This document shows positions 2,290 through 46,885 of a stretch of DNA of 56,776 bases, in pieces. Within the stretch, counting starts at the first letter, position 1. Every line of letters starts with the position of its first letter. Below the pieces are notes generated by a model. That model ran no database searches and was not told the origin of the DNA. It saw nothing but the letters and a program-made list of their open reading frames with translations. The stretch lies in the sequence record NC_027378.1. The stretch is one strand, 5' to 3'. The position numbers were made by a program, and so were the translations under genes. The DNA comes from Escherichia phage Seurat.

Positions 2290-3786
2290 ATGGGTATTGA
2301 TGCAACTCACCCGCTATACGACAAGTGGAAGAATGCATGGATTAAGTGCAACGACTGCTATGAGGGTGAAGATAAAATTAAGGAAGAAGGTGTTAAATAT
2401 CTACCGCCTTTAGCTTCCATGATTATTGATGGGATGAATAATCCTAATGATTTGGGCTTTCAACGTTGGCTCGCTTATCGTCTGCGTGCTAACTTCCCTG
2501 ACGATTATTCAAGTGCTGTTACAAACAATTTAGGTCTGCTGCACCAGAAGCCGCCTACAATCCAGCTTCCTCCTGAAATGGAGTACATGCGGGATCTGTG
2601 TACTGCGGACGGTGAAGACATTATTGCTCTGCTACGTCGCATCAACGAAATGCAGTTAAAAAATGGGCGTCTGGGCCTGCTACTGGACTTGCCTAAAGGT
2701 GAGGATGTAAATAACAGACCTTATATTAGCGTTTATGACGCTTTATCCATTATCAACTGGGATGATGGTAAAGATGAATTGGGCAATATCAACTTGAACA
2801 TGGTTGTTCTGGATGAAAGTGGTCCTGTACGTGTCAATCAGTTTGACTGGAAAGAAGAGAAGCGTTACCGCGTTCTACAATTAGGTCCAATGGACACAGA
2901 TGAAGTTGCAGGTGGGGCGATCTACTCCCAACATCTGTTTATTAACAATACCAATTATGATGAAGGGCAAATGATTGCTCCTTATTATAAAGGTAACACG
3001 CTGGACGAAATACCTTTCCAGTTTGTCAATACAACAGATATTACCCCAGCACCGGAAGCGCCGCCATTGTTGGGTCTTGCTAACATTTGTCTAAGCATGT
3101 ACCGAAGTGACGCGGATTACCGCCAAAGCTTGCATATGCAGGGTCAGGACACTTTAGTCGTTGTTGGTGGTACTGGGGAGAATGGGGATAAAGCCCCTCA
3201 ACGCATCGGCCCTGGCGCTGTCATTAACGTTGCTATTGGTGGTGACGCTAAATATGTAGGTGTTAGCGGTGACGGTTTGTCCGAGCAACGTCTCGCACTG
3301 GCAGCGGATAAGCAGGAAGCCCAAATTAAAGCCGGGCAAATGGTAAACAATACCAAGAGTACGCAGGAATCGGGCGAAGCCATGAAAACGCGTATTGCTG
3401 CGCGTACAGCTAGTCTGATTCGAATTGCGTATACTGGTGCGGCTGGTCTGGAAAACTTGCTGAAGGTTTGCGCTAAGTGGATGGGCGCTGATCCCGAGAA
3501 AGTTGTGGTTAAGCCTAATCTTGAATTCACCAAGAGCATGTTTAACGGTCAGGACTTTGTTCAAATTATTACTGCACGCAACCTTAAGGCTCCGATTAGC
3601 TTGCAGTCTATTCATGGTTGGCTTGTTGATCAGGGCTTAACCACACTAAGCTTTGAAGAAGAAATGGCAATTCTTGAAGAAGAGCTTAAGAAGTGGCCTT
3701 TGCCCGATGATGCTAAAGCTGATTTAAACGCAGAGCAGCAAGTAAGCAAAGATCCTAAGGAAGACGACGCTTCCGATAAAGAATAG
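2290..3786 (+). CDS. portal protein (putative)
   Basis: 498 aa directly after terminase; RBS GGAGGG; acidic C-terminus; size and position typical of portal. Confidence 0.65.
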   Translation: MGIDATHPLYDKWKNAWIKCNDCYEGEDKIKEEGVKYLPPLASMIIDGMNNPNDLGFQRWLAYRLRANFPDDYSSAVTNNLGLLHQKPPTIQLPPEMEYMRDLCTADGEDIIALLRRINEMQLKNGRLGLLLDLPKGEDVNNRPYISVYDALSIINWDDGKDELGNINLNMVVLDESGPVRVNQFDWKEEKRYRVLQLGPMDTDEVAGGAIYSQHLFINNTNYDEGQMIAPYYKGNTLDEIPFQFVNTTDITPAPEAPPLLGLANICLSMYRSDADYRQSLHMQGQDTLVVVGGTGENGDKAPQRIGPGAVINVAIGGDAKYVGVSGDGLSEQRLALAADKQEAQIKAGQMVNNTKSTQESGEAMKTRIAARTASLIRIAYTGAAGLENLLKVCAKWMGADPEKVVVKPNLEFTKSMFNGQDFVQIITARNLKAPISLQSIHGWLVDQGLTTLSFEEEMAILEEELKKWPLPDDAKADLNAEQQVSKDPKEDDASDKE

Positions 3787-3881
3787 TTGCAACTTCCAAG
3801 TTGATTGGTTTATATTAACGAACACGGGGCTGGGACGGCTCAGCCCCAAAAACGTCACACGGGTGACAACGGAGATAAGAA

Positions 3882-4754
3882 ATGAAAAAGAGTTCTGTAG
3901 CTATTAGTGTTGGTATGGCTTTAATTAATCCACGCGCTCGCGGTGAAGGTGATGTGGAACTGGAATACGAATATGCATCTGCGGAAGAGATCCCGGCAGA
4001 GTTTGCAACTCTTTACGCAGAGCAGGGCGGTAAATACGTTCTTGCAAAAGTTAAAGGTGTAGCCCCTGCTGATAGCGTTCGTCGTCTGGAAAGTGCATTG
4101 GCAAAAGAACGTAACGACCATCGTCAGGTGAAGCAACAGATTAGCGCACTTGGGCGTCCGGTTGAAGAAGTCCTTGCGGACCTTGATCGTATCCCTCAAC
4201 TAGAAGCTGCCGCTAACGGTAAAGGTACTCCAGAAGACATCGAAAAGATGGTTAAAGCCCGTCTTGCTCCGCTTGAGCGTCAATTGCAAACTGTAGCAGC
4301 TGAACGCGATTCCGTTAAGCAGGAAATTGAAGGCTACCGCACTCGCGAAACTAAAGCGAAGATTAAAGACGCAGTTATTGCTGCTGCATCCGGCGCTAAG
4401 CTGCGTCCGTCTGCTATCGAAGATGCGGTGACTTATGCACAGTTGCAAATGACCGTCGACGAGAACGGCAATGTGGTTACGAAAGATGGGGCGGGTGTAA
4501 CTCCATACCTAACCCCGGCGGATTGGCTTAACGAGATTCTCCCGAAACGTCCTCACTGGGTTGAGGGTTCTGCTGGTGGCGGTGCATCTGGTCCGGGCGC
4601 TGGCGGTCATCACGGTGAAGACCCATACAGTCACGACGGTTGGAACATCTCTAAGCAGATGAATCTCTGGAAAACTAATCAATCTTTAGCTAAACGCTTA
4701 GCTGAAAAGAATGGCGTAGATCCGCTGAAGCCTGTACGTCCTGCTAAGAAATAA
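3882..4754 (+). CDS. scaffolding protein (putative)
   Basis: 290 aa, charged helical coiled-coil-like sequence between portal and capsid genes. Confidence 0.5.
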   Translation: MKKSSVAISVGMALINPRARGEGDVELEYEYASAEEIPAEFATLYAEQGGKYVLAKVKGVAPADSVRRLESALAKERNDHRQVKQQISALGRPVEEVLADLDRIPQLEAAANGKGTPEDIEKMVKARLAPLERQLQTVAAERDSVKQEIEGYRTRETKAKIKDAVIAAASGAKLRPSAIEDAVTYAQLQMTVDENGNVVTKDGAGVTPYLTPADWLNEILPKRPHWVEGSAGGGASGPGAGGHHGEDPYSHDGWNISKQMNLWKTNQSLAKRLAEKNGVDPLKPVRPAKK

Positions 4755-4876
4755 GTTGACATCCCGACGTCCCTGATGTTAAGTTTCAACACATCAGGGA
4801 CACGGGTTCCTAAACAGCCTTCCACGGGGAAAGGCTACCAACAGTAAACAAATCAATCCTTTTCCTGGAGACAAGT

Positions 4877-5938
4877 ATGTCTAAATCTAAAATTATTCTG
4901 CCATTTGGTCGTGGTGAAACTGACCTGACTCGTTTGACGGATGTCATTGTCCCTGAGATCTTCACTGGTTATGTGCAGACGCAGACCGCTGAACTTTCTG
5001 CCCTGATCCAATCCGGTGCGGTTGTGATGGACGAGCGTTTATCAGCTAACCTTGCTGGTGCAGGTCTGACTTTTAACGAGCCGTTCTATAACGACCTGAA
5101 AGATGAAGACGAAGATATCGCGGTTGATAAAGGTAATCCGTCAAAACCGTCTAATATCACTACCGGATCTGAAGTTCAGGTTCGTATGAGTCGTTCAAAA
5201 TCCTGGGGTTCTGCGGATCTGGTATCAGCTTTGATCGGTAACGACCCAATGACCGCTATCGGTAATCGCGTGTCTGCGTGGTGGGTTCGCCGTCTGCAAG
5301 CTGCATACATCGCAACCTGGAAAGGTGTATTTGCTAATGCGAAGAAATCTCATAACGACGATTTGACTTTCGACATTTCTGGCGAGTCCTTTACGAATAA
5401 CCAGACCAACTTTACCGCGTCTAACTTCATCAACGCAACTGCAACGATGGGTGATGCTGCTCGCGGTCTGACCATGATTATGGTACACTCTACCGTTCGT
5501 AACCGTATGCGTCAGTTGAACCTGATCGACTTCATTCCGGATGCTCGCGGTGAAACTCAGTTTGAGTATTATCAGGGTCTGCGTATTATTGAAGACGACT
5601 CCATGCCGCACGATCCGTCTACTGGTGTGTTTGAAAGCTGGCTGTTCGGCCCGGGCGCGACTGCAATGGGTGCTGGATCACCGAAAGTTCCGACCGCTGT
5701 GGTGCGTGACGAAGCCGCTAACCAAGGCGCTGGTGAAGAAGTTCTTCACAACCGTGTTGAATGGATTCTGCATCCGGTTGGCCATGCTTGGGCTGCTGCT
5801 CAAACTGCTAAAGGTGGTCCGTCTAACGCTGCTACCACTAACAACCTGGCCCATGAAGATTCCTGGCGTCGTGCGTTCCCTGAGCGCAAGCAGCTTAAAG
5901 TTGCACGCCTGATTACTCGTGAGTATCAGGGTTCCTAA
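4877..5938 (+). CDS. major capsid protein (putative)
   Basis: 353 aa, position after scaffold, followed by a strong intrinsic terminator. Confidence 0.65.
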   Translation: MSKSKIILPFGRGETDLTRLTDVIVPEIFTGYVQTQTAELSALIQSGAVVMDERLSANLAGAGLTFNEPFYNDLKDEDEDIAVDKGNPSKPSNITTGSEVQVRMSRSKSWGSADLVSALIGNDPMTAIGNRVSAWWVRRLQAAYIATWKGVFANAKKSHNDDLTFDISGESFTNNQTNFTASNFINATATMGDAARGLTMIMVHSTVRNRMRQLNLIDFIPDARGETQFEYYQGLRIIEDDSMPHDPSTGVFESWLFGPGATAMGAGSPKVPTAVVRDEAANQGAGEEVLHNRVEWILHPVGHAWAAAQTAKGGPSNAATTNNLAHEDSWRRAFPERKQLKVARLITREYQGS

Positions 5939-5969: not shown

Positions 5970-5996
5970 GGGGACATCTTATGTCCCCTCTTTTTT
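5970..5996 (+). terminator. rho-independent terminator after the capsid gene
   Basis: GGGGACAT-ctt-ATGTCCCC hairpin followed by TCTTTTTT. Confidence 0.7.
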
Positions 5997-10640: not shown

Positions 10641-13600
10641 TGGCCGAAACCGCTTCGCTAGTAATCAGAGTTGACGCGAGAGGGATTAGTACCGCGGACT
10701 CTATGTTGCGGAACTTAGCGCGTACAGGTGACACAGCGGAGCGCTCTGCTCAACGTGTTACCTCCAGCTATAAAACATTGTCTAACACATCTAACGAACT
10801 TGCAACTGTCACAAGTCGTTTGGATGCTGCAATTGTAGGAATGATTAGCGTTGACACTATTAGCCGTGTTATATCGCTGTCTGACTCCTGGACCATCCTT
10901 ACCAACAAACTTGAACTAGCTCGTATGGGTAATGAAACCGTTGCGGATTCCCAGCAACGTGTATTTGATATTGCTCAGCGGTCACGTACAAGCTTGGAAG
11001 CAACTGCAACTCTATATTCCCGTCTCCAGCGTGCAATGAAGAATACTGGTATGACGGGTATGGAGCTTGGACGTATCACGGAAACAATCAACAAAGCGAT
11101 GATTGTTTCCGGTGCAACGTCACATGAAGCAAGCGCTGCCCTTATTCAGTTTTCGCAAGCAATGGCGTCCGGTGTTCTGCGCGGGGACGAATTCCGATCT
11201 GTTGCAGAACAAGCACCACGCTTAACCCAAATCATGTCCGATGCGTTAGGTGTTACCATTGGACAATTGCGTGAAATGGCTTACAGCGGCAAGTTGAGCG
11301 CCGATGTGGTTATCAAATCGTTGTCTGGTGCTGCGGATACAATTGATAAAGAATTTAGCCGCACTATGCCAACGTTTAACCAGCAATGGACGGTTGCAAC
11401 AAACAACTTGACTAAGTTCATGGGCGAATCCCAAAAGACTCAAGGTGCGGTTGCTGCATTGGGACAGACGTTTGTTGCGTTATCCGAAAACTTAGGAACG
11501 GTTGTAACAGTTGGTTCAGCTTTAGCCACAGTAATTACCGCCCGTATCATTACGGCAATGCTTGCTAAGACTAAAGCGTCTATAGCTGCTGCAAAAGCAT
11601 CACAAATGGAAGCTGCACAAACTGCGGCAACTACGGCGGTGATGCAAAGCTCTATTGGCGTTACCGCACAGAAAGCGGCTGCGGATCGTGCTGCTTCGCT
11701 TGCCGCGTTACAGGTTGCTCGCGGGTCATTAGCGGTTGCTAAGGGTACGGCAGCGGAAGCGGGCGCACGTCTTGCCCTTATTAACGCTACCCGTGCGCAT
11801 TCTGCGGCAATTATGGCGGACGTACAAGCGCGGCAAGCGCTCAATGCTGCTCTTAATGCAACTGTACCAGCCGCAAGCCGGGCGGCTACAGCAATGAGCG
11901 TGCTGCGCGGTGCTATGGGGTTAATTGGTGGTCCTGTTGGTGTAGCAATGCTGGCAGCGGGTGCAATTTACTCCTATAAAGCGTCGCTGGAAGCAGGTCG
12001 TGCGGAAAACAATCAGTTTGCGGATAGTGTTGACAGTGTACGCGATAAATTGATGCAAATGACGGAAGCTCAGCTGGCAGCTAACGCGGTCAAAGCTAGA
12101 GCAATCCTTCCGGAACTTGAAGAGCAACTGAAGCGGGAGCAGAACGCTCTAAAATCTGCAACAGAAACACAGAAGTTCTATGAAGCACAATTAAAACGCC
12201 GTGCCGCGTCCGGTCGTGATACAGCTAGTGCTGAGAAGAACTTACAAATTGCAACGGATAACGTCAAGCTTGCTGCCGAGCGTGCTGAAGAAGCTCAACG
12301 CCGTTACAACAATGTCTTAGAAATGACAAGCCCTGCTATCGAGAAGATAATTCCGTTAGCTCGTCAGCTTGCAGCTGATATGAAAGCAGTGCTTAATATC
12401 AAATCCGGTCCGCTTATTGACGAGAAAGTGCTTGATCGTTTTAAAGGTCAGTTAGGTGATGTCAACCGTGAGATTGATGTTAACACGGTTAAGGGTGCTG
12501 GCAATGCTCGCCAAGCTGCAATCCTTAGTGGACTGTATCAGACGCTGGGCAAGGATGCGGATACATACGGAAGTCTTATTCGCAAAGTAGCTATGGGTCA
12601 GGACGTTAGCTCAGAGGCAACAAGCGAATCCGCTAAAGAGCTTGTTAAATATGCTCAAGATTTAGCGCAAGCTCTTGGCAAAAACTACGATCTTGAAGAA
12701 GCAGAGAGAAACCGGACTAAAGCTACAAAAGACGGTATTAAAGCAGAACAACAGAACGCCAAAGTTATTGACGATTTACGCAACAAGCTTAACGAAGTAA
12801 CCACAGGAGTTAAGGAAAACGCCAAAGCAAAAGCTCAAGCTGTGGCTTTAAACAAGCTCAATACGTCTGCAACTGCCGCGGAAAAAGCAGAAGTTATGAG
12901 TCTTGCTGCTGCGATTTATGAAGCGGAAGAAGCTCAAAAGAAACTGGACGAGCGTAAAAAGAATCGTAAAGTTGCTCAAGGTCTGTTAGATGAAGGTATG
13001 ACGGACTATGAAAAAATCGCGTATGAGCAAAATACTAAGATTGCGGATCTTAATGCAAAACAACGGGCGGATGATCTAGCTCACTATCAGCTTTACGAAG
13101 ACGCTAAGACGCAAGTCCTGAAGAAAGCGAGCATGGAAAGGGAAAATCTGGATAAAGTTCTTATGAACCGAATGATATCCTTTTCTCAGGAATCCTTAGG
13201 TATTATAATGGATGGGCTGTCACAGGCTGTAAGCCAGCAGAACTTCTTTTATAAAGCTATGTTTGCAGCACAGAAAGCAATGCAAATCCCATCAATCCTT
13301 GCCAACACGGAAACGGCAGCATCTGCGGCGCTTGCATGGGGTACACAGCAAGGAGGTGCTACGATGGGTGCAACAATGGCAGCTATAGTGAAAACTATGG
13401 GTTATGCGTCCGCTGCTACTGTGGGTGGCTTAGCGATCGCTGGTATGGCTCACGACGGTATTGATAACGTTCCGCGTGAAGGTACATGGCTGCTGGATAA
13501 GGGTGAACGTGTACTTAATGCTCCGTCTAATGACAAGTTAAATCGCTTCCTGGATAGCCAAGCTTCACAACAAGGTGGCGTGAATATGTCCGGTGGTGTT

Positions 13601-18459: not shown

Positions 18460-18466
18460 TAAATAA

Positions 18467-18494
18467 TTAACCCCTCAAACGAGGGGTTAATTTT
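18467..18494. terminator. bidirectional intrinsic terminator between J and the convergent lipoprotein gene
   Basis: TTAACCCCTC-aaac-GAGGGGTTAA perfect 10-bp stem with T-rich flanks on both strands. Confidence 0.6.
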
Positions 18495-46603: not shown

Positions 46604-46885
46604 ATAGGGTATTGCCTTAACCCTATGGTAAGACCCTCCCTATTAAATTGCAAGAGTTATTGTAAAACAATAGGTATAGGGTGCAATACAGGGTTCATAT
46701 AGGGTAACCCTATAAACACCCTATAAAATACCCTCCCTATGCAGCTTTCTAAATTTATAGTTTTAGTTTACCCCTTGCGCCCCCGCAGAAAAACTAAAGA
46801 TAGGGGTACTAGGGTAAACATTGGCAAATACCCTATACCCTACTCCCTATACTATGATTCTAAAAAATTTGGAGTATACCCCTAT
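46604..46885. repeat. iteron-like array of CCCTAT/ATAGGG hexamers (at least 12 copies, both orientations)
   Basis: Includes the palindrome TATAGGGTAACCCTATA near 46698-46714; about 0.14 copies expected by chance in 280 bp. Confidence 0.7.

Follow-up and report, generated by a model that had tools for sequence, protein, structure and literature searches.

In tailed phages, scaffold and capsid protein are made in a large, fixed ratio to the other virion proteins, and control of this ratio is poorly understood outside a few models. In phage P22, synthesis of the scaffolding protein is reportedly autoregulated. Phage T7 has RNase III sites between genes, and in the sib retroregulation of lambda a hairpin is complete in only one transcript isoform. 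The hairpin in the 5´ untranslated region (UTR) of ompA is said to be a 5´-terminal stem-loop that stabilizes its mRNA. Here, we describe the leader between the head scaffolding gene and the major head (capsid) gene of Escherichia phage Seurat (NC_027378.1), whose sequence of 56,776 nucleotides (nt) is referred to in full as the window. The leader is a compact 122 nt, is invariant among Seuratviruses, and is predicted to combine a host-type promoter, a hairpin that would be complete only in read-through RNA, and a hairpin motif with a conserved loop, AYGG.

An earlier sequence-only reading of the window had singled out a consensus -35 box overlapped by a perfect hairpin at this place. Neither the leader elements nor the AYGG motif are described in the phage 9g, Vid5, and Seuratvirus comparative-genomics papers, and no relevant Rfam match was obtained, either in window positions 3600–5100 (E <= 10) or in 10 related loci (E <= 1). 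The site appears to be an undescribed, conserved leader architecture in which a putative cis-regulatory leader RNA is joined to a predicted internal promoter.

Results

Scaffold-capsid gaps were gathered from relatives with capsid proteins 48–95% identical to that of the window, comprising Salmonella phage STP-SP5, Hafnia phage yong3, Providencia phage PSTCR4, the Nonagvirus ChristophMerian, Pseudomonas phage NP1, two Vibrio phages, and 80 IMG/VR loci. Among close relatives, the gap (128 nt with stop and start codons included, window 4752–4879) is 100% identical in six other Seuratviruses, whereas the flanking scaffold and capsid genes, measured in four of the six, are 91.5–95.7% identical to those of the window. 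This difference argues for strong purifying selection on the whole leader, beyond boxes and stems, and the gap would qualify as an ultra-conserved non-coding block. SeppeHuegi (locus tag prefix bas24) is one Seuratvirus with the identical gap. The portal-scaffold gap, located one gene upstream, has 1–3 changes among the same Seuratviruses. At the other extreme, the distant capsid relatives K1G and SETP3 (Guernseyvirinae), XAJ2, and Eta have scaffold-capsid distances of 2–15 nt, and AYGG hairpins were not found in them; the leader is thus specific to the clade of the window phage.

The sequence-only reading had noted TTGACA at 4756–4761 and a TTAAGT 17 nt downstream, and both are present, the latter at 4779–4784. 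The comparison with relatives points to another register for the -10. Alignment A2 comprises the eight sequences that are still alignable and represents at least five distinct lineages, with capsids that are 48–54% identical outside Seuratvirus. Here, the -35 is TTGAC[AC] in seven of the eight and TTGCAA in the remaining one, the spacer is 17–18 nt long in all of them with a sequence that is unrelated between genera, and G-14, T-12, A-11, T-8, and T-7 are invariant (columns G4778, T4780, A4781, and T4784–T4786). From these columns, the working -10 register is most readily taken to be TGtTAAGTT, an extended -10, and not TTAAGT. The promoter elements are conserved in Seuratvirus, Nonagvirus, Providencia phage PSTCR4, and metagenomic relatives, and have the features of the sigma-70 extended -10 class, i.e. 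a near-TTGACA -35 together with TGn, A-11, and T-7 at 17±1 nt. This is the pattern of conservation expected of a working sigma-70 promoter and it indicates that the site is probably active. A promoter-like site also begins directly after the portal stop codon, in the window and likewise in STP-SP5, yong3, PSTCR4, and ChristophMerian, and is presumably active as the promoter of the scaffold gene. The internal promoter proposed by the sequence-only reading as a boost to the capsid gene thus holds up as regards the conservation of the -35, G-14, TA..TT, and the 17–18 nt spacing, and would fit a cassette that raises the output of scaffold as well as capsid.

The promoter is overlapped by a large RNA hairpin. 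An outer stem of 4 base pairs (bp; CCCG 4763–4766 with CGGG 4803–4806) is followed by a 2x1 internal loop and an inner stem (4769–4779 with 4791–4801), in which the arms TCCCTGATGT (4770–4779) and ACATCAGGGA (4791–4800) flank an 11-nt loop (4780–4790) that holds the -10. The hairpin had previously been described as 10 bp with an 11-nt loop and no U-tract; it lies where it had been placed, and its stem is in fact 11 bp, extended by the pair G4769-C4801 and including 6 G-C pairs, in addition to the 4 bp of the outer stem. The scaffold-capsid gap folds better than its shuffled versions (z = -3.28, 1 of 200 shuffles as good), and the window has 46 inverted repeats of at least 10 nt. Within the window alone, the features of the leader are only modestly beyond chance, and it is the comparative evidence that is decisive. 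Since the arms could not be aligned by sequence (MAFFT and RNAalifold), the hairpin was folded per lineage. A hairpin that encloses the -10, or has the -10 in its 5´ arm, occurs in 17 lineages at z-scores between -2.8 and -6.7, with stem sequences that are unrelated between lineages and pairing that is kept through changes in both arms. Summed over these 17 hairpins, G·U pairs number 31 when the sense strand is folded vs 4 for the antisense strand, and in 16 of 17 it is the sense strand that folds more stably. The STP-SP5 stem differs from that of the window by just two substitutions, each of which yields a G·U pair. The strand bias in G·U pairs argues that the large hairpin is selected as sense RNA and not as strand-symmetric DNA. 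As to the RNA element of the sequence-only reading, the compensatory changes in 17 lineages and the sense-strand bias speak for it, with the role in processing or stability remaining a candidate one. The gaps as a whole are structured (mean z = -3.2), with the sense strand folding better in 43 of 66 (p = 7e-4). A resemblance of the stem sequence CTGATG to the core of the hammerhead ribozyme was dismissed, as it is not conserved in relatives (GGTGATG, TTGGTG) and has no match in Rfam.

The large hairpin has the predicted transcription start in its loop or 3´ arm and would therefore form only in RNA that reads through from the scaffold gene. Its 3´ half contains the 5´ arm and loop of the distal one of two small hairpins with ACGG loops in the leader (hairpin 3 in Table 1), and the large and the distal hairpin are mutually exclusive. 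The last bases of the 3´ arm of the large hairpin are GCAYGG, or nearly so, in most of the 17 lineages. The predicted probability of being unpaired is 0.25 and 0.27 for the two ACGG loops in read-through RNA and 0.87 and 0.91 in RNA starting at 4791. The folding model suggests two leader isoforms with different folds.

The ACGG hairpins occur in both gaps, two in each, and when a C-G closing pair is required there are none elsewhere on the + strand of the window. The sequence CAYGGG is not enriched genome-wide (36 matches vs 37 expected), with 4 copies within the 217 nt of the two gaps. Hairpin 1 is the second hairpin of the sequence-only reading, which had placed it between portal and scaffold at about 3826–3847, exactly the span it has. 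Its stem is GGGGTTAGG/CCTAACCCC in yong3, with two compensatory changes, and in ChristophMerian the hairpin reads GCGGTAGA-ACGG-TCTATCGC. The stem of hairpin 2 covaries to GCCAC/GTGGC in yong3 and to GTGGA/TCCAC in ChristophMerian. For hairpin 3, 93.5% of cells are paired and both-side changes are found in 3 of 6 pairs. The loop of hairpin 4, the proximal one, begins 53 nt before the capsid ATG, and proximal hairpins of like architecture, often with a 1-nt 3´ bulge after two pairs, are found 43–64 nt upstream of the capsid ATG in most relatives. In the bulged type, both sides have changed in 7 of 8 pairs, in a set that was chosen for its fold and in which only the diversity of pair types is informative.

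A broader census was made in 69 non-redundant scaffold-capsid gaps. These contain 58 AYGG hairpins in 10.5 kb vs 17 in 124 kb of flanking coding sequence (approximately 40-fold), and at least one is found in 43 of the 69. AYGG accounts for the loops of 58 out of 142 stable tetraloop hairpins in these gaps, where 0.8% would be expected were all loops equally likely, and is followed in frequency by ATGT, ATGC, and ATGA. The closing pair is C-G in 33 of 38 hairpins in an ungapped census and in 15 of 15 in alignment A4. In 24 of 65 loci, the motif also directly precedes the ribosome-binding site of the scaffold gene, and it is present even in the portal-scaffold gaps of Vibrio phages, which at 25–30 nt are too short for a promoter. 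The distance from the -10 to the hairpin, judged by eye, is 7–12 nt in 11 lineages, which places the hairpin at approximately +1 to +5 of the predicted start. The combination of variable, covarying stems with a fixed loop argues for recognition of the loop in RNA. By comparison across the collected loci, the AYGG hairpins appear as a clade-wide, loop-conserved family restricted to the scaffold and capsid leaders of the Queuovirinae and many uncultured relatives. The sequence-only reading had missed the better -10 register, the extended -10, the predicted restriction of the large hairpin to read-through RNA, the overlap at its 3´ arm, and the ACGG tetraloops shared between the two gaps.

Several known elements were considered for these hairpins and rejected. 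A binding hairpin for CsrA/RsmA does not fit, the loops being ACGG or AUGG followed by a closing G (or C or U), without GGA. A lambda-type nut site does not fit a 4-nt AYGG loop, and no boxA-like CGCTCTTA was seen by eye in either gap, no dedicated search having been run. A Shine-Dalgarno-sequestering switch, in which the proximal hairpin would alternate with a helix over the capsid Shine-Dalgarno sequence, has no covariation support beyond tract slippage. In RNAalifold and minimum free energy folds, the proximal hairpin engages CCTTTTCCT through its 3´ arm, GGGGAAAGG (4827–4836), and TTCCA pairs with TGGAG. The duplex z-scores for this helix in 50 lineages are mildly shifted (mean -0.82, 28% below -1.64), and on A2 its covariation score is 0.214, no better than the 0.25–0.26 of one-column slides; the pairing is treated as slippage of purine and pyrimidine tracts and is not supported as a switch.

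Two observations concern similar sequences. In the capsid leader of ChristophMerian (L008), GGCGGTAGAGTT at approximately 1372–1383, which overlaps the proximal ACGG hairpin, agrees at 10 of 12 positions with GGCGGTAGCGTG, the consensus of the RfaH ops element of E. coli. Neither L052 nor the window has GGCGGTAGAGTT, and the likeness is probably a coincidence. At 2285–2298 in the window, GGTAT-ATGG-GTATT forms a small hairpin with the portal start codon (ATG 2290) in its ATGG loop; its closing pair is U·G, unlike the C-G of the leader motif, and it may be due to chance.

The window is the genome of a Seuratvirus (Queuovirinae) and its region 3600–5100 is 99% identical to Escherichia phage slur01 and 94–99% identical to approximately 30 other Seuratvirus genomes. 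PHROGs give the gene order as small terminase, large terminase, portal, head scaffolding protein, and major head protein, in agreement with the portal, scaffold, and capsid genes named by the sequence-only reading. The structural genes are tightly packed save for three gaps, of 95 nt (portal-scaffold), 122 nt (scaffold-capsid), and 70 nt (post-capsid). The last of these has a strong terminator inside the late operon, and its position is kept in 7 of 7 relatives examined. The features are listed in Table 1.

Table 1. Positions of genes, predicted signals, and hairpins in the portal-capsid region of the window.
Feature	Position	Strand	Basis or remark
Portal gene	2290–3786	+	phrog_145 (PHROGs)
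Predicted sigma-70 promoter of scaffold: TTGCAA 3787–3792, 18-nt spacer, TATATT 3811–3816	3787–3816	+	Promoter scan
ACGG hairpin 1: GGGGCTGGG-ACGG-CTCAGCCCC, 9 bp including one G·U, loop 3835–3838	3826–3847	+	Portal-scaffold gap
ACGG hairpin 2: GTCAC-ACGG-GTGAC, loop 3859–3862	3854–3867	+	Portal-scaffold gap
Scaffold Shine-Dalgarno GGAG	3871–3874	+	4 nt after end of hairpin 2
Head scaffolding protein gene	3882–4754, stop TAA 4752–4754	+	Open reading frame; phrog_206, E = 2.2e-44
-35 TTGACA of predicted capsid promoter	4756–4761	+	Begins 2 nt after scaffold stop codon
Large RNA hairpin overlapping the promoter	4763–4806	+	-23.5 kcal/mol, z = -4.8
Extended -10: TG 4777–4778, T, TAAGTT 4780–4785 (TGtTAAGTT)	4777–4785	+	Conserved register, 18-nt spacer
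Predicted transcription start, A4791 or A4793	4791–4793	+	Usual 6–8 nt distance from -10
ACGG hairpin 3 (distal): AGGGAC-ACGG-GTTCCT, loop 4802–4805	4796–4811	+	Scaffold-capsid gap
ACGG hairpin 4 (proximal): AGCCTTCC-ACGG-GG-A-AAGGCT, loop 4824–4827, bulged A 4830	4816–4836	+	Scaffold-capsid gap
Pyrimidine tract CCTTTTCCT	4858–4866	+	Read from sequence
Capsid Shine-Dalgarno GGAG	4867–4870	+	Read from sequence
Major head (capsid) protein gene	4877–5938, ATG 4877–4879	+	Open reading frame; phrog_247, E = 1.4e-104
Intrinsic terminator, GGGGACAT-CTT-ATGTCCCC then TCTTTTTT	5970–5996	+	Terminator scan; directly 3´ of capsid gene

Other observations were made in the window and in relatives. A cluster of short repeats, CCCTAT and ATAGGG(T) in both orientations, is found at 46620–46740, e.g., ATAGGGTAACCCTATAAACACCCTATAAAATACCCTCCCTAT (inverted repeat I1), and could be a set of binding sites for a regulator or at an origin. 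There are perfect 12-bp inverted repeats at 11079–11111 (CGGAAACAATCA, 9 nt, TGATTGTTTCCG) and at 18465–18492 (AATTAACCCCTC, 4 nt, GAGGGGTTAATT), the latter just after the central tail fibre gene, where it may be a terminator. The IMG/VR viral contig L027 has a two-piece (permuted) alphaproteobacterial transfer-messenger RNA at 1036–1412, scoring 91–94 bits, well above the gathering score. It is located approximately 1 kb upstream of the capsid gene and is either phage-borne or part of a host flank.

Discussion

The reading that we prefer, and hold with a little more belief than doubt, is a composite of an internal promoter, a hairpin peculiar to read-through RNA, and exposed ACGG hairpins. 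A host sigma-70 extended -10 promoter would start capsid transcripts at approximately 4791–4793 and add to the read-through from upstream. Together, the scaffold promoter, the capsid promoter, and the post-capsid terminator would provide extra mRNA for scaffold and capsid, the most abundant proteins of the head. The large hairpin of read-through RNA would hide the 5´ arm and the ACGG loop of the hairpin at 4796–4811. Promoter-initiated RNA would begin 3–5 nt before this hairpin and carry the one at 4816–4836 too, such that both expose C(ACGG)G. The AYGG hairpins would act post-transcriptionally. By analogy with the 5´ stem-loop of ompA, a 5´-terminal stem-loop should protect the capsid mRNA from 5´-end-dependent decay, and a candidate loop-specific factor of phage or host may bind the AYGG loops to set the synthesis of scaffold and capsid. 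The large hairpin in read-through RNA would either keep the element off or be cut, with RNase III as the obvious candidate, to free a 5´ end capped by a hairpin. The composite builds on the conservation of the promoter elements, the apparent selection of the large hairpin on the sense strand, its exclusivity with hairpin 3, and the clade-wide loop family, all as seen in the comparison of relatives.

Several observations weigh against this reading. TTGACA alone is not enriched in the window (33 matches vs 37 expected), and the full pattern TTGACA-N14-16-TGnTAnnnT has 1 match vs 0.15 expected, with at least one match in 12% of shuffles, such that the extended-promoter pattern is not significant on its own within the window. 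TAAGTT matches 3 of 6 positions of the -10 consensus (TATAAT), for which reason the promoter scan did not list the site. A canonical terminator directly follows the promoter-like site in Vibrio phages and in L028 and L029. A terminator hairpin with a U-tract is found within a few nt of the site in the scaffold-capsid gaps of L006, L009, L028, L029, L031, and L037, which are Vibrio phages and similar IMG/VR contigs; in two of these relatives the terminator hairpin has an AUGG loop. In this layout, the proximal AYGG hairpin is located downstream of the terminator hairpin. Such a promoter-then-terminator layout is unexplained by a simple boost of capsid transcription. A census of G·U vs A·C around the AYGG loops is not clearly asymmetric (25 vs 19), because bulges shift the register in the ungapped count. 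In the portal-scaffold gap, the first hairpin follows the -10 at a less regular distance (3–14 nt), and in neither the window nor ChristophMerian was a further AYGG hairpin found before a candidate regulator gene. The sense-strand bias would also fit a hairpin in single-stranded sense DNA, where selection is much less plausible than in RNA. Finally, activity of the promoter, its start site, and the occurrence of two isoforms are predictions, and it is in the inferred steps that most of the doubt over the composite lies.

Other explanations start from the large hairpin. It could end the scaffold transcripts, as a rho-independent terminator or a partial attenuator, with transcription of the capsid gene restarting at the embedded promoter. 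Two GenBank records label it a terminator: OL960573.1 (3651–3682 and 4594–4636) and OL960575.1 (3654–3683 and 4596–4638) annotate both this hairpin and the one at 3826–3847 as rho-independent terminators, based on WebGeSTer and TransTermHP, and a U-tract does follow the equivalent hairpin in L015, L038, and Vibrio phages CA8 and VhaS-tm. In the window, no U-tract is found after the large hairpin, where the sequence 3´ of the stem is CACGGGTTCCTAAAC (also given as ACGGGTTCCTAAAC), nor after the extended stem, which is followed by TTCCTAAAC, nor after the hairpin at 3826–3847, which is followed by AAAAACG. All enterobacterial relatives and most of the 17 lineages likewise have none after the large hairpin. 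Neither hairpin was listed in a terminator scan of the + strand that accepts loops of 3–8 nt, a limit outside which the 11-nt loop of the large hairpin falls. The large hairpin is not a canonical terminator in the window, we consider a terminating role unlikely, and a practical correction concerns the GenBank labels, which sit on hairpins without a U-tract. A role mainly as a processing site for RNase III, or another double-strand-specific enzyme, is compatible with the composite and partly contained in it. The cut would separate scaffold and capsid mRNAs and leave the ACGG hairpin at the new 5´ end, in keeping with selection at the RNA level of a hairpin that would exist only in read-through RNA, with the stems of relatives, which have 13–19 pairs with internal loops, and with the overlap between the 3´ arm and the ACGG hairpin. 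E. coli RNase III substrates typically comprise approximately two helical turns, however, and the stem in the window, at 11 + 4 bp around the 2x1 internal loop, falls below this length. The hosts of the relatives are also diverse. Cleavage as the main function is possible in our view, but rather doubtful.

An explanation at the DNA level would take the perfect inverted repeat of 10–11 bp bracketing the -10 as the operator of a dimeric repressor that shuts the capsid promoter early, or as a cruciform that makes the -10 inaccessible. For phage 9g, a Nonagvirus in the same subfamily, repressible promoters have been proposed, together with two putative regulators (PMC4276943). The symmetry of a DNA element predicts no strand bias, contrary to the excess of G·U pairs and the greater stability on the sense strand. 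Moreover, the arms differ in sequence from one relative to the next, the scaffold promoter lacks this repeat, and the wider motif, with conserved loops and free arms, is the opposite of an operator; we give this explanation very little credence. It could also be that the leader has no specific reader and that the gap, as a long stretch without translation, is simply kept folded against Rho loading and attack by RNase E, the promoter being incidental or weak. The high degree of structure in the gaps generally and the free variation of the stems speak for this. It leaves unexplained, however, the invariant AYGG loop and its share among the tetraloop hairpins, the closing pair fixed as C-G, the steady distance from the ATG, the complete identity over 128 nt, and the conserved -35 and -10, and appears improbable to us.

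One possibility that goes beyond the composite is that a dedicated RNA-binding factor, e.g., free scaffold or capsid protein or a host protein, uses the C(AYGG)G hairpins as operators and couples the synthesis of scaffold and capsid to head assembly throughout the clade. The promoter-embedded hairpin would then serve as a transcript-origin switch, with the operator exposed only in capsid mRNAs that are promoter-initiated or cleaved. We offer this tentatively and with considerably more doubt than conviction. If a factor does read the AYGG loop, the motif would be a new translational or stability operator of phages, and a handle to tune capsid expression in engineered coliphages, including those of the BASEL collection.

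Comparison with known systems

The predicted promoter resembles the extended -10 sigma-70 promoters of late operons in its consensus -35, the 17–18 nt spacer, TG at -15/-14, A-11, and T-7, and in being located directly before a very highly expressed gene with a terminator after it. Unlike them, it is built into a conserved RNA hairpin, the 5´ arm and loop of which are made up of its spacer and -10. The large hairpin is reminiscent of lambda sib, in that the same DNA would give two RNAs, only one of which has both arms of a hairpin, depending on where the transcript starts or ends. In the leader, unlike in sib, it is the 5´ ends (start sites) of the two RNAs that differ and not the 3´ ends, the stem is shorter, and cleavage is hypothetical. 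A likeness to stabilizers of the ompA type is seen in the position of the ACGG hairpins, predicted to be 3–5 nt from the 5´ end of the capsid mRNA and approximately 2–4 nt from that of the scaffold mRNA. Such stabilizers do not depend on a given loop sequence; here, by contrast, both AYGG and the C-G pair that closes it are conserved, and the motif also occurs away from predicted 5´ ends, in the proximal hairpin and in the promoterless gaps of Vibrio phages. The post-transcriptional control reported for P22 concerns a scaffold gene that immediately precedes the coat gene, as it does around this leader. For P22, no RNA target is known to have been defined, and RNA binding by scaffold or capsid protein is hypothetical in the present case. 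In contrast to the boxB (nut) hairpins of lambda and P22 and the translational operators of RNA phages, such as the coat-protein hairpin of MS2, the motif has a 4-nt AYGG loop and not a GNRA-like pentaloop or ANYA, no boxA was seen by eye next to it, and any N-like or coat-like binding protein for it is hypothetical, as is a role in antitermination or repression. What it shares with these hairpins is its small size, a conserved loop on variable stems, and its presence in more than one leader of the same phage.

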